Below, piece after piece: positions 2,491-14,432 of a stretch of DNA of 14,502 nucleotides. Within the stretch, counting starts at the first letter, position 1. The number at the start of each line of letters is the position of its first letter. This DNA is from Dubosiella newyorkensis (GTDB lineage Bacteria; Bacillota_I; Bacilli_A; Erysipelotrichales; Erysipelotrichaceae), in contig NZ_MPKA01000142.1 in NCBI RefSeq assembly GCF_001945605.1, positions 1 to 14,502 on the forward strand, in the 5' to 3' direction. Made by a program: the position numbers and the translations under genes. The notes beneath the pieces were generated by a model, which saw only the letters and a program-made list of their open reading frames with translations, was not told the origin of the DNA and made no database searches.

Positions 2491-3801
2491 ATGCACTTTC
2501 AAATTCCAAGAGGAACCCAAGATATTCTGCCTGCCGAATCCAATAAATGGCAGGCACTCGAGCAAACTTTACGTCATTTCTGTTCGTTGTATGATTTCAA
2601 GGAGATCCGTACTCCGATCTTTGAACATACCAATGTATTCAAACGCGAAAACGATTCCAGCGACATGGTCAATAAAGAAATGTACACGTTCCAGCTTGAA
2701 AACTCGAACACATCGTTGACATTGCGTCCAGAAGGGACAGCTGGTGTCGTACGCAGTTTTGTCGAACATAAAATGTACGCGAATCCCGATCTTCCAGTCA
2801 AAATGTATTATATGGGAGAAATGGCGCGTCATGAACGGCCGCAAAAGGGACGCCTTCGTCTCTTTCATCAATTTGGTGTCGAATCGTTAGGAACCAAAAG
2901 TCCTTTGGCGGATGTCGAAGTGATCACACTCGCTTTTTCGATCTTGAAGGCGCTTGGTTTAGAGGAAATCAAAGTGCTGATCAACACGTTAGGAGACGAC
3001 GAGAGCCGTGCCGCTTACCGGAATGCTTTACGAGACTATTTCGCCCCATACCTCGATTCGCTTTGCGCGGATTGTAAACGCCGATACGAACAAAATCCGC
3101 TTCGTATCCTAGACTGCAAGATCGACCATGATCTTGACTGTGTCAAGAACGCTCCCAAGATGAGCGATTATTTAAATGAAAACTCAAAGGATTATTTTAA
3201 AACTGTACTGCAGACGCTCGATCGTCTCGGTATTCCTTATCAAGTAGAAGATACGCTTGTTCGTGGCTTGGATTATTATACACACACTGTGTTCGAGATC
3301 GTTTCGATCAACGAGGAGATGGGTTCCCAATCGACTGTCCTTGCAGGAGGACGTTATGATGGCTTGATCTCTTATTTTGGCGGTCCTAAAGAAATGAGCG
3401 GGATTGGCTGGGCGCTAGGCATGGAGCGTTTGATCATCGCTCTCGAGGCGGAAGGCATCAACTTGAATGAAGAAGATGCGTTAGACTGCTTCGTGATGGT
3501 GCTTGATCAAGAGGCGAGAGAATATGCCTTTGAAGTGCTGACAGAAATCAGGGCGTACGGCTATCGGGCCGATATGGATTATCAATCTCGTTCATTCAAG
3601 GCGCAATTCAAAGCGGCGGACCGCAAAAAAGCAAAAACAGCGATCATGATCGGCTCGTCGGAAATGGAATCGGGAAGCGTGACGGTCAAGCTATTGGATC
3701 GAAAAGAACAAACAACATTGCCTGCGGACGAACTCGTTTCGTATTTAGATGTTCATCTTGAAGAGGAAGAAGAACATCACCATCATCATGAGGAGGAATG
3801 A
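2491..3801 (+). CDS. hisS: Histidine--tRNA ligase, with an unusual C-terminal EEEEEHHHHHEEE tail
   Basis: 436 aa. Class II HisRS motifs are present (RHERPQKGRLRLFHQFGVE; AGGRYDGLI; GIGWALGMERL). SD AAGGAGA is at 2477-2483. A T-box lies upstream. Confidence 0.95.
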   Translation: MHFQIPRGTQDILPAESNKWQALEQTLRHFCSLYDFKEIRTPIFEHTNVFKRENDSSDMVNKEMYTFQLENSNTSLTLRPEGTAGVVRSFVEHKMYANPDLPVKMYYMGEMARHERPQKGRLRLFHQFGVESLGTKSPLADVEVITLAFSILKALGLEEIKVLINTLGDDESRAAYRNALRDYFAPYLDSLCADCKRRYEQNPLRILDCKIDHDLDCVKNAPKMSDYLNENSKDYFKTVLQTLDRLGIPYQVEDTLVRGLDYYTHTVFEIVSINEEMGSQSTVLAGGRYDGLISYFGGPKEMSGIGWALGMERLIIALEAEGINLNEEDALDCFVMVLDQEAREYAFEVLTEIRAYGYRADMDYQSRSFKAQFKAADRKKAKTAIMIGSSEMESGSVTVKLLDRKEQTTLPADELVSYLDVHLEEEEEHHHHHEEE

Positions 3802-7537: not shown

Positions 7538-7987
7538 AGATAGTTTCAATCTATTAACAATAGAAGCCGATATCGCCTTTTTTTTCTTGGCAAAAACGCG
7601 TATTTCTTGTTCGAATACATGCCGAAAATAAGAATCATCACGTGTGATAGGCCAGACTTCCTTAGTTCATAGTTCAATGAGACAATCTTCTCCCACTTGT
7701 TTTTTTATATTTCAATTAAAAATATTTAAATATGGTTACAGAATGTCTCTGGGATCCGCTTTCATATCCAGCCATAAAGAAAGATTTTCGTGATAACACT
7801 ACCGTTGAATTAACGACTTTGACAATAACTCAGCAGATCGAATATTACCTAAAATAGGATCAAAGGATTATTTACTTCACTTTTCGAGATGTTTAGAAAG
7901 CCGTATGTTTTATTGAATATCGATCATTCTTCATAGCAAAATATAATTGAAGCTTCATTGGAAATAAACATATATAGACTAGTATTT

Positions 7988-9244
7988 CTAGACTGAATCG
8001 CTTAAAGTTTGATTTTGAACAAGGTCGGTTAGCTCTTTTTGGTAGTGAAGAGCCCATTCGAGATTTTCGCTTTTTTCAGAGAGTTCGATTAAACATTCCA
8101 AGATCCATGATCGCAAAGGATCCATATCAAATGCTTTGATGCTTTCTTTGAAATTTTCAATAGCTAAATAATAGTTGCTCTGATACCAAGCTACAATTCC
8201 GTCGATCAATAAACTCCAAGGAATCAGTTCGTCAAAAGAATTTACCATTTTTTTATTATCCAGGAGAAAGTCTTTGGCTTTATAAACAAAACTATAAAAG
8301 CAAGAATCATTCAATCGAAAAGCCGAAAAAATGATAATCAAATATAGAAACGGTTTTTCAGATGTCGTCTGAAGAGCTTGTTGTGCGTATATAAGGGCAT
8401 TTAGCGAGTCTTTTTTTCGAAAATGTCCATAAGCGAGCAAGGAAAGACAACTTTCGTATAAATCCGAGTCAAGAACAGATTTTTCTAAAAGAATACGATT
8501 TAAACATTGTAAAGATGATTGATAATCGCCTAAGTCAATCCGTATTTGTGCTTCCAAAAGAGAAAGCTGAATAAAACGAAAATACGATCCATATTGAAAT
8601 ACGAGAGATTTACATCGATTTAAGTATTGTAAAGCTTCTGTAAGCTTTTGTCTAAAATACGTATTCATAGAAAGATGTAAATTAATCATGAAAGAATTTG
8701 GATCGTAGAAATAAGCTTGGAGGAGATAGCTTGTTTCAGAATCGATATCGTTCGCATGAATTCCAAGTAAATGATAATAAATCGCAAGTTCTTTTGAAGA
8801 GTAGAATTCGATTCCAGACTCAATTAAACTTCGCAATTCCTCAATCTTTTTTTCATCTTCTTCATCGCATACTAATTTGTATAATTCTATTAATAAATAT
8901 TGCGGAAACAAAAAAGACGCAATCAAAAATCGATCAGAGAGGATTTGATCAATCAATTCTTTTCTCTTCTCATTTTGCAATGAACAATGTAGAAAATCAA
9001 TTTCATTTATTTGAGCGAGAAGCTTTTCTTTTTCTTGCATGTTGTTTTTGAAGGAAGGGAAGTCGAAAAGATGAGCAAACTGATTACGACCTTCCTCATC
9101 CAGATTGCTGATGCCCTTTTCAATAGAACGAATCATTGAATAAGAGTAATGTGTTTGATGGGCTAAAGCATCCAATGTCCAGCTATATTTCTTTCTCATC
9201 GTATTCACGAAAAAGCCGAAAATCCGTGATTCTGTTTGATTCAT
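7988..9244 (-). CDS. RNPP-type (NprR/PlcR/Rgg-like) transcriptional regulator: N-terminal XRE-family HTH plus a long TPR-like helical repeat domain
   Basis: 418 aa from the ATG at 9244, with SD AAAGGAA 6 nt upstream. The track start at 9259 is a TTG lying inside that SD. The HTH is FGFFVNTMRKKYSWTLDALAHQTHYSYSMIRSIEKGISN. The remainder is helical-repeat-like, with recurring Y/L/A-rich ~34-aa units. It is divergent from the rSAM operon. Confidence 0.7.
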   Translation of the reverse strand: MNQTESRIFGFFVNTMRKKYSWTLDALAHQTHYSYSMIRSIEKGISNLDEEGRNQFAHLFDFPSFKNNMQEKEKLLAQINEIDFLHCSLQNEKRKELIDQILSDRFLIASFLFPQYLLIELYKLVCDEEDEKKIEELRSLIESGIEFYSSKELAIYYHLLGIHANDIDSETSYLLQAYFYDPNSFMINLHLSMNTYFRQKLTEALQYLNRCKSLVFQYGSYFRFIQLSLLEAQIRIDLGDYQSSLQCLNRILLEKSVLDSDLYESCLSLLAYGHFRKKDSLNALIYAQQALQTTSEKPFLYLIIIFSAFRLNDSCFYSFVYKAKDFLLDNKKMVNSFDELIPWSLLIDGIVAWYQSNYYLAIENFKESIKAFDMDPLRSWILECLIELSEKSENLEWALHYQKELTDLVQNQTLSDSV

Positions 9245-9261
9245 AGTATTTCCTTTCAAAA

Positions 9262-9396
9262 TAGCAGATATTATTGGATTAAAAATCCAGAAAAACTATA
9301 ATATTATTTTGTTCAATTAAGATAAAAATCAGTTATATAGGATTTGTTTATAAAGCTTTGGCTTAAGAACAATAAAATGATGTAAAATATCTGCTA
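9262..9396. repeat. Pair of 11-nt inverted repeats in the regulator/rSAM intergenic region (candidate operator half-sites)
   Basis: TAGCAGATATT (9262-9272) and its exact reverse complement AATATCTGCTA (9386-9396). Confidence 0.4.
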
Positions 9397-9512
9397 CTTA
9401 ATTTGTTGCGTTGATAGTTATTTAATTCTATCATAAAGGTGTCAAGAATAGAATAGATGATATTGAATAAACAGGTTGTTAGACAATTAATCTATTAAAG
9501 AGAGGTAAGAAA

Positions 9513-10757
9513 ATGCAGTTTGAACCAAAAGAAGATGAAGTGTATTTTTGTGAGGACGAAGGATACGGTATAGTCTATTCACATGAGAAAAAATCGCTTT
9601 ATAAAATCTCTTCAGAACAAGCTAAAAAGTTAAAAGAAATCAAAAAAAGACAATCAATAATTAAAAGTGATTCAAGAGAAATTGTAAATTTTGATAATTC
9701 AAATTTAAAGAAAATAGAATTAATTATGAGCACAGCGTGTAATTTGAAATGTGATTATTGTTTTGCAAATGGTGGAAATTATAATTTAAAAATTAGAAAT
9801 ATAAAAATTGATGTTTTAGATAAAACTATAGAATTAATTGAAAAATCAAAAAATGTAAATGAAATTGTTTTTTTTGGTGGAGAACCAACCCTTGCAGAAA
9901 AAGAAATAGAATATTTATGTGAAAATTTAAGAAGAAAAGGTCTATTTCCTAAATATAAGATAGTGACAAATTTATATCAATTGAGCAATCAATTGATTGA
10001 TATCATTTATAAGTATAATATAATTATAACTATTAGTTTAGATGGACCAGAATGGATAAATAATAAAAGAAGAAAAGCTCGTGATGGGGGGAATGTATAT
10101 CAGAGAGTTGTAAATAATGTTGAGAGATTAAATAACAAGGGTATAAATATAAAAGCAATTGAAGCTACTTATATGACTACTCATAAAGAAGCTGGATTCA
10201 GTAAAGAAGAATTGAAGGATTTTTTTAAAGACAATTTTAAAATAGATGATATTTATATTGTTGATGAACTTAATGAAAAAGAAAATGAAGTGGAATCAGA
10301 AATTGGAAACCTATTTCAAAAAAATAATTTAGAAAGTTGTGATCTTTTGTTTTTATCTAGTTATTTCCAAGAAAATAAGAAATTATATGGAATTTGTAAC
10401 AGTGGAATTTCAAGCATTTGTATTGATCCTCAAGGATATATTTATCCATGCCATTTATATATTAATAAGAATTATTCTTTAGGAAATATTTTAAATGGAA
10501 AAATAAAAAGCTTTAAAGAAATAAATTGGATTAGAGAAAAACTTGGTTGTTATAATTGTTCAGCAAGATATTCATGCAATATTTGTTTAGCCCATTGTTT
10601 AATCTCTAATACTTCTTTAGAAGATAAATGCATGAAAGTTAAAAAAGAGAATTCAAAACTAGTTTATAAAATGTTTCGTTATTTAGATACACACAATTTA
10701 CAAAATTTAAACAAAGGAGAAAATAATGGAAGAGATCAAATTAGAAGTTTTGAATGA
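9513..10757 (+). CDS. Radical SAM / SPASM-domain peptide maturase
   Basis: 414 aa. CNLKCDYC (C76/C80/C83, nt 9738-9761) is the CX3CX2C motif. A GGEP motif (FFGGEPTL) is present. The C-terminal Cys-rich region has CNSGISSICIDPQGYIYPC (GX4C) followed by CYNCSARYSCNICLAHC...C. The N-terminal ~60 aa look like an RRE/PqqD-type leader-binding module. SD GAGAGG lies 7 nt upstream. Confidence 0.85.
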   Translation: MQFEPKEDEVYFCEDEGYGIVYSHEKKSLYKISSEQAKKLKEIKKRQSIIKSDSREIVNFDNSNLKKIELIMSTACNLKCDYCFANGGNYNLKIRNIKIDVLDKTIELIEKSKNVNEIVFFGGEPTLAEKEIEYLCENLRRKGLFPKYKIVTNLYQLSNQLIDIIYKYNIIITISLDGPEWINNKRRKARDGGNVYQRVVNNVERLNNKGINIKAIEATYMTTHKEAGFSKEELKDFFKDNFKIDDIYIVDELNEKENEVESEIGNLFQKNNLESCDLLFLSSYFQENKKLYGICNSGISSICIDPQGYIYPCHLYINKNYSLGNILNGKIKSFKEINWIREKLGCYNCSARYSCNICLAHCLISNTSLEDKCMKVKKENSKLVYKMFRYLDTHNLQNLNKGENNGRDQIRSFE

Positions 10758-10860
10758 AATAAAATTAGATGAAAAAGAATTAGAAGAATTGAAAGAGTTC
10801 CAACTCAATCTAGCTAATGGAGGAGCAGGAGGAGGAATTGTTTGCTATTGTAAAACATGA
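10726..10860 (+). CDS. Putative RiPP precursor peptide (44 aa), absent from the supplied ORF track
   Basis: The ATG at 10726 is preceded by AAGGAGA (10714-10720, 5-nt spacing). Translation: MEEIKLEVLNEIKLDEKELEELKEFQLNLANGGAGGGIVCYCKT*. The stop TGA is at 10858-10860. It overlaps the last 32 nt of the rSAM gene in another frame. It has an acidic amphipathic leader, a Gly-rich hinge and a short Cys-containing C-terminal core. Confidence 0.7.
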   Translation: MEEIKLEVLNEIKLDEKELEELKEFQLNLANGGAGGGIVCYCKT

Positions 10861-11204
10861 TTCTAATTTCATTTAAGGAATTTTGATAAGTTTTATTTTT
10901 TAAGAATATACATAGGCTCATGTTGAAAATATATTAGAAGTTTTAATCTACAGAAAAACATAATTAATATCAAATAATATATTTAATATATGAATTCTAC
11001 TTTACGTGTTTTAAATTGAAATAGTAAGTTATATTTTGTAAATTGTTGTATAAAAAAGGAGCTGTAGATTATTTCCATTTACAAAGCATATATTTTAAAT
11101 ATTATAATACATTAAATTGTATATTTATATAGCTTCTAGAAGAAATTAATACAACTCCTTTAAATATATATATAAAATTTTAAATAAATAAAATAAATGG
11201 AAAA

Positions 11205-11561
11205 ATGTTTAAACTAAATTTACTAAACAAGCAATGGGAAATTGCTTATCTAGGATGTATTAAAAAAGGAAGTATAATCATTTTGGGGGGACCTTTTACT
11301 AATTATTCTAATGATTTTGTAATTATTCCTCCTAATATACTTATGAAATTATTAGTGTTTTGCGTAAAAAATGATTTGAGTCCAATAATAATTCATAACC
11401 ATACAAATAACAGCTCTTTTTCTATTCCTGATAGAAATTTTTTGAAATCTATTGAAGAAATATATTATAGAAATGGAGGAAGTAAATTCATTTATTTGGG
11501 GTTAATAAATTCAAAGACAGGAGATTCAAAAGTTATTTGTAATAAAAGTAGGAGAAAATAA
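11205..11561 (+). CDS. Small (118 aa) protein with a JAB/MPN (JAMM)-like metallopeptidase motif pattern; function unproven
   Basis: E12 sits in WEIAYLG. A beta-strand-like segment SPIIIH64NH66TNNSSFS73IPD76 (nt 11394-11432) gives HxH-x6-S-x2-D, against the canonical JAMM HxH-x7-S-x2-D. The stop overlaps the ABC start (TAATG at 11559-11563). Its own SD is weak. Confidence 0.45.
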   Translation: MFKLNLLNKQWEIAYLGCIKKGSIIILGGPFTNYSNDFVIIPPNILMKLLVFCVKNDLSPIIIHNHTNNSSFSIPDRNFLKSIEEIYYRNGGSKFIYLGLINSKTGDSKVICNKSRRK

Positions 11562-13171
11562 TGAAAAAATACTTTATAAATAATAAAAATATTTGTATAA
11601 AATATTTATTCCTGATGATCATGAATGGCTTGATTCCAGTTTTTAGCGCTCAATGGATTACATGGGTTACAGGATATGCTTTAGGAGAAAATGATGAGTT
11701 AGTGAACTTAGCCCTTTCTTTAGCATTTATGAGTGGATATACAATAATTGTTTATTTATCATACGATAGAATTAAACGAAAATATAAAGAATCTATGATG
11801 ATAGAAATAGAGCAAGAAATGATGGATGCTGTTGTCTTGCAACCACAACAATCTTTCCATCGGTACGATTCGAGTTTCTATACATCATTTTTTCTTAATG
11901 ACCTTAAAATGTTGGAAGATTCATATTTCTCTCAAGTCCCAACTTTAATTTCAGGAATTGTACAGATTATTTTTACAAGTGTTTATGTAGTGGTATCGGT
12001 AAATGGCTGGATATTGCTTTATTTTATTTTATCTAGTTTTATTCTTTTATGGATACCAAAATATATGAGTCAAAAGATTCAAGAAAAAGCTCAATTCGCT
12101 ACTAAACAGGCTGGTGAATTGACTGCCTTTTTAAAAGAAACGTTTCAAGGATTTGATACTTTAGCAGGAAATAATGTTCAAGAACTTTATACAGAACACT
12201 CATTAGATCACTTTTTACACTATGAACTGGCAAAACAGAAAGTAAACTGGCTTACTATGATTTCTAGTTCTCTTTCCAATGGATGTGGACTGTTTTTTCA
12301 GTTCGTTTTGCTGTTTATATTAGCAATTTGCGTAACGGAAGGAAAAATAAAGGCAGAATATCTGATTTCGATCACCTCAATCTCAGGGACATTTATGAAT
12401 GGTGTTTTTACAATAACAGAAGCATTTTCCAATTTGCAAACTTCTAGACCAATCATTAAAAAAGTGCAAGAATTTCAAAACAATCCACGTATTTCATCAG
12501 AAAAAAAACGATCTTCTGTTAAATATATAGTTTTAAAAAACGTTGATTATTCGATAAACAATAAAGTGTTAATTGACAATTGTTCGTATGTTTTCGAGAA
12601 AGGAAAGAAATATTTGATAATTGGAAAAAGCGGAAGTGGGAAATCGACATTATTTAATTTACTTAATGGACGTATAAGTTGTAATAAAGGAAAAATAGAG
12701 TTTAGGAAACTAAATCATGATTCTTGTTCGTTTCCCCTCTACGAAGAAATCACTACAATTTCACAAAAACCTGTCTCTTTTCAAGGAACCGTAAAAACGA
12801 ACATTCAAATGAATAGATTCTTAGATGATAAAAAAATCAAGAAGCTTTTAGAAAAAGTCAATCTTCCATTATCGGTTTTAGATCAGCCGATCACAGAAGA
12901 TAACACTTCTGTTTCAGGAGGAGAATTACAACGAATTTCGATCGCTAGAGCTCTAGCAGATCCACGTTCATTTTTATTATGTGATGAAATTACTGCTAAT
13001 ATTGATCCCAATAGTGCGAGTATAGTTGAACATGCTGTGACTTCTGTTAAAGAAACAGGAATTTTATATATAGCTCATCATTATACGAAAGAAACGATAA
13101 AGAGATTTGATGTAATATTAGAACTAAAAAATGGAAAGCTAATAGATGTTACTTCACAATTCAATAACTAA
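11561..13171 (+). CDS. ABC exporter half-transporter (6-TM domain plus NBD) with no N-terminal C39 peptidase domain
   Basis: 536 aa. Walker A is GKSGSGKST (aa 355-363), Q-loop ISQKP, signature VSGGELQRISIARAL, Walker B FLLCDE, H-loop YIAHH. The hydrophobic N-terminal ~300 aa begin at residue ~13. SD AGGAG is at 11550-11554. Confidence 0.85.
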   Translation: MKKYFINNKNICIKYLFLMIMNGLIPVFSAQWITWVTGYALGENDELVNLALSLAFMSGYTIIVYLSYDRIKRKYKESMMIEIEQEMMDAVVLQPQQSFHRYDSSFYTSFFLNDLKMLEDSYFSQVPTLISGIVQIIFTSVYVVVSVNGWILLYFILSSFILLWIPKYMSQKIQEKAQFATKQAGELTAFLKETFQGFDTLAGNNVQELYTEHSLDHFLHYELAKQKVNWLTMISSSLSNGCGLFFQFVLLFILAICVTEGKIKAEYLISITSISGTFMNGVFTITEAFSNLQTSRPIIKKVQEFQNNPRISSEKKRSSVKYIVLKNVDYSINNKVLIDNCSYVFEKGKKYLIIGKSGSGKSTLFNLLNGRISCNKGKIEFRKLNHDSCSFPLYEEITTISQKPVSFQGTVKTNIQMNRFLDDKKIKKLLEKVNLPLSVLDQPITEDNTSVSGGELQRISIARALADPRSFLLCDEITANIDPNSASIVEHAVTSVKETGILYIAHHYTKETIKRFDVILELKNGKLIDVTSQFNN

Positions 13172-13595
13172 TATTTTAGATTCAGAAAAAATATTATTAT
13201 GTATCTGATTAACTCTAACAAGAAGTGTTTAGCATGATCTCTTTGAAAAAATTGGATGTAGTTCCATAAGAACGAAATAAATAGCTCGTAGAACACGTTA
13301 AGAGAATCAGAGACAATAGCTCAACGAATGAAACGTGTTATTCGAAAATAAAATAAATGAAAGTTTACTATCCTAGCAGAGTTCAAGAATATTTGGAAAT
13401 CATATCAAGAAGCATCTGGGGAAATGACCAATTTATATAAGAGAATTAAGAAACAACGATTATGAGCTTACCTAGACGCTTGTTAGAATTATAATATAAA
13501 AATTATTTCATATTTTATATCTCCTATTGAACAGATGTATTAGTTAAAAGCTAAAATCAATAGAAATCAAAATCTCAAAAATAGGTTTAAAAAGA

Positions 13596-14273
13596 TCATT
13601 CACTTCGCTTTTTAGCTGCGACAAGAGCGCAAAAATCCTCCCTAGGCTGATAACAAAGAACTTCTTCCTCGATCAGAGGCGCTTGGATCCATTTCTGGCC
13701 CCCATTTAGCGCTGTATCCGCGATGGCGATCATGATCTTAGTAGGGATCGAAAACGAAGAGAGTGGCTGGTTGAGAAGCTCTTGTTGCGTATATTCCGTT
13801 CTTTCTAAGAACGCGTCATTGATATAGTGGATAACCCCATTCATTCCGCTTCCGTTTCCATCGTATTCCATACCGATCAATAAAAAGGGAAGAGGGCAAT
13901 GATCGAATATGGAACACTGATAATCGATCGAGAGCGCTTGCCGGTTTTTTGACTTATTATATTTCTTTTCTTGCTCATATTTGACCGTTCTAGGTAGTCG
14001 AGCTCTTCCTTTGAAGACCATTCCGTCTTCCATCGTATAAAGGTCGTCTTTTACGCTGTAGATCTTTGAAGTCGAGAGCGCGATCCCTTTATTGACATTC
14101 AAGAATTCTTGGACGGGAAGTTCGTCCAAGATCGCCTTTAAAGGCGTAAATGTATCGATGATCCGTCCATCGATCAAGAAGATATTCGTCTTTCCGTTTT
14201 CGCGTTTGATGTATTTGATCTCCGGGATCTCGATATGGTGCTTGTTGAAAAATTTAATGAGTTTTGTATCCAT
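13596..14273 (-). CDS. LytTR DNA-binding domain protein with a C-terminal PAS-like domain and no receiver domain
   Basis: The LytTR-like segment is IPEIKYIKRENGKTNIFLIDGRIIDTFTPLKAILDELPVQEFLNVNKGIALSTSKIYSV..YTMEDGMVFKGR. The PAS-like segment is LPFLLIGMEYDGNGSGMNGVIHYINDAFLERTEYTQQELLNQPL. The start is ambiguous. I prefer the ATG at 14273 (225 aa) because a near-consensus promoter sits inside the longer 14348 reading. Confidence 0.6.
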   Translation of the reverse strand: MDTKLIKFFNKHHIEIPEIKYIKRENGKTNIFLIDGRIIDTFTPLKAILDELPVQEFLNVNKGIALSTSKIYSVKDDLYTMEDGMVFKGRARLPRTVKYEQEKKYNKSKNRQALSIDYQCSIFDHCPLPFLLIGMEYDGNGSGMNGVIHYINDAFLERTEYTQQELLNQPLSSFSIPTKIMIAIADTALNGGQKWIQAPLIEEEVLCYQPREDFCALVAAKKRSE

Positions 14274-14279
14274 ATCCGA

Positions 14280-14308
14280 ATTATAACAAACTTCAAATCT
14301 CCTTTCAA
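14280..14308 (-). promoter_or_regulatory. Near-consensus sigma-A promoter positioned for a leaderless transcript of the LytTR/PAS gene
   Basis: The minus strand reads TTGAAA (14308-14303), a 17-nt spacer ending in TGT, TATAAT (14285-14280), 6 nt, then ATG (14273). Confidence 0.4.
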
Positions 14309-14432
14309 AACTTGTTCGAAACAATGAATTACGGTGTATAAGTTGCATTCGAGGAATAGTTTTTGTATTATAGATCCCATCTTTTACAGTTTTAACAGTG
14401 CGAAAGGCGCCTATCTCCTTTATTTAAAGGGT

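Follow-up and report, generated by a model that had tools for sequence, protein, structure and literature searches.

How is the leader taken off a precursor peptide in a gene cluster whose exporter carries no peptidase domain? Leader removal is often the missing step in the heterologous expression of mined clusters for peptides that are synthesized ribosomally and modified post-translationally (RiPPs), and many radical-SAM RiPP clusters, including those of the streptosactin type, have an exporter without a peptidase domain and no known protease. The question is raised here by a compact RiPP cluster of Dubosiella newyorkensis (Erysipelotrichaceae, Bacillota), located in a stretch of 14,502 nucleotides of contig NZ_MPKA01000142.1 that was analysed as a whole (the window) and in which the genes of a maturase and a precursor, a spacer, an open reading frame (ORF) for a protein of 118 amino acids and the gene of an ATP-binding cassette (ABC) exporter follow one another. 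We propose that the 118-residue protein is the leader peptidase of this module, acting in trans where peptidase-containing ABC transporters (PCATs) use a fused C39 domain, and put the probability of this reading at roughly 0.6. It is the most economical reading, since it brings together the JAMM-type catalytic apparatus of the protein, the absence of a C39 domain from the exporter made with it and the constant neighbourhood of a precursor with an invariant small-residue junction.

The ORF occupies positions 11205-11561 of the plus strand, starts with ATG and encodes 118 residues, as confirmed from the ORF list and by direct reading of the DNA. The initial annotation had described in it a motif E12...H64-N-H66-x6-S73-I-P-D76, one residue short of the canonical JAMM spacing, and its residue numbering proved exact. 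By counting, Q10, W11, E12 and C18 are placed, with E12 lying within KQWEIAYLGC; H64-N65-H66 closes the hydrophobic run SPIIIHNH, and the six residues TNNSSF (T67-F72) separate H66 from S73-I74-P75-D76, giving E...HxH-x6-SxxD where the canonical spacer is x7. H64, H66 and D76 are the predicted zinc ligands, E12 the predicted catalytic glutamate and S73 the predicted helix-cap serine. Among six-frame ORF segments of unrelated loci, ~830,000 residues in all, the pattern H.H.{6,8}S..D was encountered five times, which corresponds to a chance expectation of ~6e-4 in 118 residues. One of the five matches is E. coli YicR, a true JAB protein, and of the other four only L058 was inspected, which proved to be a spurious ORF antisense to a histidine-kinase gene. 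On inspection the sequence shows neither a hydrophobic N-terminal segment nor a transmembrane-like one, and the protein is judged from this to be cytoplasmic.

The family to which the protein belongs is small, with about nine lineages that come mostly from metagenomes. A word-indexed homology search with the single 118-residue protein recovered the protein itself alone; an exhaustive phmmer search, covering 1.84 billion representative proteins, yielded only four true homologues, and a profile search of a 5.8-billion-protein collection added a few more members. A further match, to the NATFNIPDLNL repeat of an 869-residue repeat protein (P0004), was spurious and was discarded. Seven full-length members are 26-36% identical to the window protein, and E12, G17, K48, C53, P60, H64, H66, F72, S73, P75, D76, F79 and Y87 are invariant in all seven. 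The five catalytic and metal-binding residues of JAMM enzymes (E12, H64, H66, S73 and D76) are all among them, and the invariance of the E/HxH/S/D set at this level of identity argues for selection on catalysis. Cys53 (positions 11361-11363 of the window), which is placed in the helix before the HxH strand, shares its invariance with K48 and Y87 and stands outside the canonical JAMM motif; it might act as an additional metal ligand, as a redox switch or structurally. Several predicted proteins from Logan assemblies related to L018/L021 (P0007, P0013 and P0015) are chimeras in which a maturase N-terminus (MNKQDYIYYKNKKGIVIYHVP...) is joined directly to parts of the JAB protein; these could be deletion variants of the plasmid-borne module described below or misassemblies.

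Structure prediction has been employed to place the protein in a fold. A single-sequence AlphaFold model was poor (predicted local distance difference test, pLDDT, 51.7) and unusable, while the model from a five-sequence family alignment reached a pLDDT of 83.9 and a predicted template modelling score (pTM) of 0.77. In the latter a beta-hairpin and a helix are followed by a strand that closes with HxH, by a helix that opens at SxxD and by two more strands, which is the alpha/beta fold of the JAB/MPN+ superfamily (MEROPS M67 type). HxH ends strand 59-66 and SxxD begins helix 74-89, a placement as in JAMM enzymes, and the catalytic motif is present in full save for the length of its spacer. In a Foldseek search of the PDB the JAB-containing Citrobacter BubCD held the first eight ranks (best E 6.3e-6), and behind it came P. 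furiosus JAMM1 (template modelling scores, TM, 0.58/0.54), Sst2/AMSH, EMC8/9, BRCC36, RadC 2qlc, Prp8 Jab1/MPN and Rpn8/Rpn11; sequence identity in the structural alignments to the PDB JAMM proteins was 14-16%. The search of BFVD was led by phage 'RadC DNA repair' proteins (TM 0.66, root-mean-square deviation 3.2) and by JAB-domain, MPN-family and tail JAB proteins.

A comparison of profiles pointed to the same branch. Twenty-three RadC JAB domains were collected with E. coli YicR, and hhalign set the family profile against their alignment with V-x-V-x-P, HNH and SxxD in register (E 0.015, score 20.8). None of 300 column-shuffled RadC alignments reached this score (mean 11.05, standard deviation 2.05, maximum 20.2; empirical p < 1/300). 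The RadC alignment itself matches PDB 2qlc at 2.8e-33, so that the evidence from sequence and from structure converges. We therefore regard the 118-residue protein with high confidence as a minimal JAB/MPN+ domain whose catalytic set is intact, related to the curated RadC family and not a member of it. The minimal JAMM/JAB-like domain of the initial annotation is thus borne out by the modelled fold, by the invariance of the five residues and by an alignment to RadC above all shuffles. The domain call as such is not new, because the UniRef name of the protein is already 'RadC-like JAB domain-containing protein'; the functional proposal is.

The surroundings of the gene are as constant as its motif. 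Synteny was counted over the family loci whose flanks lie on the contig, in about nine lineages ranging from Erysipelotrichaceae to a Fusobacteriaceae metagenome-assembled genome (MAG). At every such locus the gene order is that of the window: a radical SAM/SPASM protein (~412-420 aa where complete), a precursor (41-45 aa), the JAB protein (118-162 aa) and a C39-less ABC exporter (526-545 aa where intact). The same order was found with P0002 (L007/L008), P0003 (L009-L011), P0005 (L012-L014), P0006/P0008 (L015, L018 and L021, the last being the Fusobacteriaceae MAG, on a plasmid-like contig), P0010 (L019) and P0012 (L020), and on four further metagenome contigs (L101-L104). With an identical four-gene order across these lineages, the JAB gene is in the cluster and co-inherited with it, as a RiPP leader peptidase should be. 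Overlaps of 1, 4 or 20 nt between the JAB and ABC genes are seen in the window, L007, L019 and L101-L104; in three other lineages a gap of 2-19 nt separates the two, and L012 alone has 115 nt between them. In the window the JAB stop codon TAA (11559-11561) shares one base with the exporter ATG (11561), and an AGGAG Shine-Dalgarno sequence sits within the 3' end of the 118-residue ORF; the TAATG coupling noticed initially can thus be read in the DNA. No family member fused to an ABC or other domain, or located in another context, was recovered by the phmmer and profile searches. The family hidden Markov model also found no member at 79 more distant radical SAM loci from GTDB genomes, where the next-nearest radical SAM proteins are ~25% identical, too distant to inform on C39/JAB complementarity.

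The exporter (11561-13171, plus strand, 536 aa) consists of a transmembrane and a nucleotide-binding domain of the bacteriocin/PCAT lineage. Pfam gives ABC_membrane (19-280) and ABC_tran (339-479) alone, with no Peptidase_C39. Alignments to the profiles of peptidase-containing bacteriocin/PCAT exporters begin only at profile positions 146-195, so that the N-terminal C39 domain of ~150 residues is absent, in agreement with what had been claimed for this exporter. No other protease is encoded in the window cluster, nor was another protease gene seen in any recovered version of the module. In some other D. newyorkensis contigs the exporter is shortened to 518-520 aa (L003, 10357-11919; L004, 9194-10750, with a displaced start), and in L018 (3359-4981) it is split into ORFs of 221 and 310 aa; these shortened, displaced or split versions suggest that the exporter is frameshifted or decaying in some strains. 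In the closest homologous module (L007, 2324-5570; JAB protein 39% identical) two C39-less ABC half-transporters (530 and 539 aa) are encoded one after the other in place of a single one, which suggests a heterodimeric exporter in that lineage.

The candidate substrate is encoded at 10726-10860 (plus strand), an ORF whose first 32 nt (10726-10757) lie within the 3' end of the maturase gene. This order, with the precursor gene downstream of the maturase gene and overlapping it, is conserved in the family, the overlaps in L009 and L020 being 11 and 28 nt. The precursor of 44 aa (MEEIKLEVLNEIKLDEKELEELKEFQLNLANGGAGGGIVCYCKT, ending ...NLANGGAGGGIVCYCKT) can be divided into an acidic helical leader that ends in Gly32-Gly33, MEEIKLEVLNEIKLDEKELEELKEFQLNLANGG, and a predicted 11-residue core with a CxC motif, AGGGIVCYCKT. 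Homologous precursors of 41-45 aa are found at the same position in every related locus. The ten distinct ones share the acidic helical leader (...LTKEEEKLxKELQxNLA...), a junction of the form L-[AG]-x-[GA]-G followed by [AST]-x-G, and a short hydrophobic core with C-terminal C-x-C-x-x. At this junction P1 is Gly in 10/10, P2 is Gly in 9/10 and Ala in 1/10, and P1' is Ala, Ser or Thr. A [GA]-G junction followed by [AST] is a small-residue site of the kind that JAMM active sites need. A second Gly-rich point lies four residues downstream (AGGG before IV, ASGG before IV, AGGA before VIS), and its P1 is poorly conserved (G, A, A, G, S, V). Because the first junction is conserved and the second much less so, we predict from these precursors that cleavage takes place between G33 and A34, giving AGGGIVCYCKT.

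The active-site groove of JAMM enzymes is narrow and admits only the Gly-Gly of a ubiquitin-like tail; Zn2+ is held by two histidines and an aspartate, and a glutamate serves as general base. Mec+ and QbsD are prokaryotic JAMM enzymes that cut a linear peptide bond after GG and remove C-terminal residues. In the proposed pathway, the maturase would install cross-links on the CxC core, and the JAB enzyme would bind the extended C-terminus of the leader (...L-A-x-G-G) in the way in which the ...LRGG tail of ubiquitin-like proteins is bound by JAMM enzymes. It would then hydrolyse the bond between G33 and A34, with Zn2+ held by H64, H66 and D76 and the water activated by E12. The 11-residue core AGGGIVCYCKT would be released and exported by the co-translated C39-less ABC transporter. 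The JAB protein would in this way supply in trans the function of the C39 cysteine-peptidase domain that is fused to ordinary double-glycine bacteriocin and RiPP exporters. We infer the metal binding, the hydrolytic activity, the substrate, the exact cleavage site and the stage of cleavage, whether before export or on the transporter. The candidacy as a Gly-Gly leader peptidase put forward at the outset has nevertheless gained support from the synteny, the conserved junction and the C39-less exporter.

Several points weigh against this proposal. Even at E <= 10, neither the window protein nor any of the seven members was matched by a profile in Pfam, NCBIfam, PADLOC or PHROGs, so that no significant match to a curated JAB-clan profile (JAB, Prok-JAB, RadC) is at hand for any of them, and single-sequence and profile searches of the PDB returned no JAB chain and only chance matches to sortase and SMUG1. 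The fold call rests on a predicted structure from a shallow alignment of five sequences, and the hhalign probability to RadC, 2.9%, is weak in absolute terms. The spacer from H to S counts six residues in two lineages and eight in five, so that this loop is variable in length, and it is never the canonical seven. To our knowledge, the known JAMM substrates are folded beta-grasp proteins and not helical leader peptides, and we know of no established biochemical activity or proven substrate for RadC-type JAB proteins. A C39-less exporter need not imply a cluster-encoded peptidase, because the streptosactin cluster has such an exporter and no JAB gene. Finally, conserved hydrophobic residues occupy -5, -9 and -12 in the leader, against -4, -7 and -12 in canonical C39 substrates. 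This makes the leader double-glycine-like yet not canonical, and its periodicity fits a different peptidase but proves nothing.

The JAB protein might alternatively be an active hydrolase of the RiPP pathway without being its primary leader peptidase, either as a second-step trimmer that removes a residual AGGG or ASGG or as a self-immunity enzyme acting on re-imported or prematurely matured peptide. The invariant catalytic residues would be expected here as well, and the second Gly-rich stretch lies just ahead of the hydrophobic CxC core. Two-step leader removal is common in RiPPs (PMC10885120), and immunity functions are plausible since streptosactin-type peptides kill the producer's own kin (PMC9389541). 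We consider this unlikely because it is the first junction that has an invariant P1 Gly, whereas the second is poorly conserved at P1, and because no version of the module encodes another protease that could make the first cut. Moreover, translational coupling to the exporter suits maturation better than immunity.

A lower probability still is given to a non-proteolytic role, in which the MPN scaffold would bind the leader as an adaptor or chaperone and pass the precursor to the maturase or dock it on the exporter, like a RiPP recognition element (RRE) or an inactive C39-like domain. Many MPN domains are non-catalytic scaffolds, and Rpn8, EMC8/9 and Prp8 Jab1 are among the structural matches listed above; the loop of six or eight residues and the lack of a profile match to active JAMM families would also be in keeping with such a role. 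However, scaffold (MPN-) domains characteristically lose the E/HxH/S/D residues, whereas all five are invariant in this family at 26-36% identity. An RRE or immunity fold as such is unsupported by the structural matches.

It is very unlikely that the gene is a RadC-like mobile-element JAB gene with a DNA- or conflict-related role that hitch-hikes beside the RiPP genes on a transferred island. RadC-like JAB proteins (Pfam PF04002; E. coli YicR, PDB 2qlc) are indeed closest to the 118-residue protein in both sequence and structure, and prophages and plasmids commonly carry such genes. The two share V-x-[VI]-x-P...(hydrophobic strand)-H-N-H...S-x-x-D and a domain of ~120 aa. The module also sits on a low-GC island, and one homologous module lies on the plasmid-like Fusobacteriaceae contig (L021/L015/L018), where replication, MobA and ParE/YafQ genes stand beside it. 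The differences are nevertheless considerable. In spite of the UniRef label the protein does not score against PF04002 and has only HNH and SxxD of the HNHPSG...PSxxD signature, nothing of HNHPSG beyond HNH being present. The invariant P55-S56-G57 of the RadC alignment has no counterpart in the family, and none is apparent for its invariant C-terminal D85-H86, the hhalign alignment stopping before that strand. The N-terminal helix-hairpin-helix region of YicR-type RadC is missing, and the loop from H to S has six or eight residues against seven. The contexts differ likewise, since RadC genes are found at rpmB-linked or mobile-element loci and the present gene in a RiPP operon. In the recovered loci it is never outside the order radical SAM-precursor-JAB-ABC, it lies within the operon with stop and start usually overlapping, and the exhaustive search gave no members in other contexts.

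The reading as a split, degenerate C39-like cysteine peptidase using Q10, C18, H64/H66 and D76, which the initial annotation had offered as an alternative because the gene occupies the translationally coupled slot where a PCAT peptidase domain would be encoded, is refuted, since Q10 and C18 are unconserved (homologues have Y, E, Y, T, W or F at position 18), Peptidase_C39 (PF03412) gives no Pfam match at E <= 10, and JAB/MPN proteins dominate the Foldseek matches with no papain-like or C39 structure among them. The profile searches that were to separate the two readings returned neither JAB nor Peptidase_C39; the AlphaFold model and its Foldseek matches spoke for JAB/MPN and against a cysteine-protease fold.

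Returning to the leader-peptidase proposal, it may be compared with the systems to which it is nearest in function. The C39 domain of PCAT exporters (LahT, ComA, NHLM_micro_ABC1) offers a functional analogy, as it couples the removal of double-glycine-type leaders to ABC export, and the JAB gene stands in the slot of that domain, directly 5' of the transmembrane and nucleotide-binding domains and translationally coupled to them. C39 is, however, a papain-like Cys/His domain fused to its exporter with a leader register of -4/-7/-12, while the JAB protein is a separate polypeptide of predicted zinc MPN fold facing a leader with -5/-9/-12. The prokaryotic JAMM proteases (Mec+/CysO, QbsD/QbsE, archaeal JAMM1/SAMP, CBASS Cap3 and the Bil/Bub JABs) have the same fold and the same E/HxH/S/D set, and the chemistry of Mec+ and QbsD, in which a linear bond after G-G is cut and a C-terminal piece is released, is the chemistry proposed here. 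Their substrates are folded beta-grasp proteins, whereas the presumed recognition element in the present case is an acidic helical leader of ~30 residues and the released piece would be the product. The window locus has no gene for an E1, E2, ThiF or ubiquitin-like protein.

The streptosactin (ggg) cluster, further streptococcal radical-SAM RiPP clusters under quorum-sensing control and PapB-type ranthipeptide clusters share with the window a small radical SAM/SPASM protein, a precursor and a C39-less exporter under a peptide-sensing regulator with helix-turn-helix (HTH) and tetratricopeptide repeat (TPR) domains, and the streptosactin precursor, like that of the window, is Gly-rich and contains Cys (PMC9389541, PMC8172795). 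As described in reviews, the ggg cluster consists of the precursor, GggB, GggC and regulators without a JAB gene, and in one review leader removal is ascribed to GggC with no evidence of a peptidase domain (PMC9389541, PMC8172795). The maturase of the window (9513-10757, plus strand, 414 aa) matches Pfam Radical_SAM (2.6e-17) and Fer4_12, with a weak SPASM match below the Pfam cut-off, and is probably thioether-forming, of the sacti- or ranthipeptide type. Its best NCBIfam match is the PapB-family ranthipeptide maturase (4.7e-37, 127.9 bits; cut-off 340), and it scores 91.8 against the streptosactin maturase GggB (cut-off 650); for the exporter NCBIfam ranks the streptosactin exporter GggC first (1.2e-42, 146.8 bits; cut-off 750). 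Since all these scores are far below the equivalog cut-offs, neither protein belongs to GggB or GggC at the equivalog level, and the system is related to but distinct from streptosactin and PapB. It differs from ggg also in that the precursor gene follows the maturase gene and in that the C-terminal CxCxx of the core has no obvious acceptor pattern downstream. Orthologues of the maturase in all related loci are 32-43% identical to it.

The review of RiPP leader proteases by Eslami and van der Donk (2023) covers cysteine and serine proteases and the metalloprotease families M1, M16, M61, M103, M50 and M79, and never mentions JAB, JAMM or MPN (PMC10885120). Full-text literature searches that combined JAB, MPN or RadC with RiPP precursors likewise gave no linking paper in the open full texts, much subscription literature lying outside their scope, and within that scope the earlier surmise that a JAB leader peptidase would be new holds. 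A JAB family dedicated to a RiPP module appears to be undescribed, although the domain call is known from automated annotation; what would be new is the combination of a known superfamily with a known functional slot. Whether it amounts to a new class of RiPP leader peptidase we regard as an even call. Such a class would consist of free-standing JAMM zinc proteases of ~120-150 residues that recognise a helical leader, cut after Gly-Gly and act in trans with a C39-less exporter, possibly docked on it; it would be convergent with C39, and its members would be the first JAMM enzymes whose natural substrate is not a ubiquitin-like beta-grasp protein. If true, the proposal would add a protease superfamily to RiPP biosynthesis, imply that JAMM enzymes accept a substrate that is not ubiquitin-like, and open the enigmatic RadC-like branch to biochemical study. 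It would also provide a very small and potentially traceless Gly-Gly-specific protease tool and define an uncharacterised family of CxC-core peptides in gut Erysipelotrichaceae and Fusobacteriaceae.

The rest of the locus is regulatory and intergenic DNA. Upstream of the maturase gene and on the opposite strand (7988-9259, minus) lies the gene of a divergent 423-residue protein with weak Pfam matches to HTH_19/HTH_3 (17-68) and TPR_2/TPR_12 (236-297), all below the Pfam cut-offs, which is likely to be the quorum-sensing regulator of the cluster, judging by its RRNPP/PlcR-Rgg-like architecture. Opposite-strand proteins of similar size (359-428 aa) occupy the same position in L012, L019, L101 and L102. 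In three lineages an ORF of 41-48 aa with a signal-peptide-like N-terminus is found upstream of the maturase gene (L019, 1475-1600; L101, 2968-3096 and L102, 3305-3433; L007, 62-208). Two of these ORFs end in a GPGNxxW-like motif (MRKTLICLAILACMISAGNVHQKLYFNKINLIDGPGNELWG; MKKLICITCLSLLIIGYICPSVENKISGGPGNPIWHVDMRNR), with a divergent 419-428-aa protein in both lineages, and in sequence they look like RRNPP-type quorum-sensing pro-peptides. The corresponding interval of the window (9260-9512) contains no equivalent pro-peptide ORF of at least 20 aa.

Between the precursor and JAB genes lies a spacer of 344 nt (10861-11204) with ~80% A+T (GC 0.218 for 10801-11400). No terminator was found in it, its promoter-like matches are no commoner than in shuffled sequence and its inverted repeats are weak and A/T-rich; a promoter and terminator scan of the whole cluster did no better than shuffles either. 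Convergent with the operon is the gene of a 250-residue LytTR-domain protein (13596-14348, minus strand; Pfam LytTR 1.7e-5 at 37-102) with a weak PAS-like C-terminal region (PAS_9, 0.0015), which may, from its domains, be a second regulator, its membership of the cluster being uncertain. The LytTR gene recurs in other D. newyorkensis contigs and is not beside the module in other lineages.

The 118-residue protein is 100% identical to an NCBI protein of D. newyorkensis, and its locus is present in three assemblies as well as in several sequencing runs. The whole RiPP cluster (7800-13200) is low in GC (0.22-0.31) within housekeeping DNA of 0.44-0.46 GC (phoH, yebC, hisS, aspS), and a longer D. 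newyorkensis contig has a DDE transposase after the LytTR gene. Together with the homologous module on the plasmid-like Fusobacteriaceae contig, this suggests that the module was horizontally transferred. Two observations concern the housekeeping DNA itself. A T-box leader (Rfam RF00230, 101.4 bits, E 7.6e-22) is located at 2258-2452, upstream of the hisS-aspS operon, and the C-terminal tail of the histidyl-tRNA synthetase (3760-3801) is unusual in that it is acidic and rich in histidine, ...HLEEEEEHHHHHEEE, like a natural His-tag.

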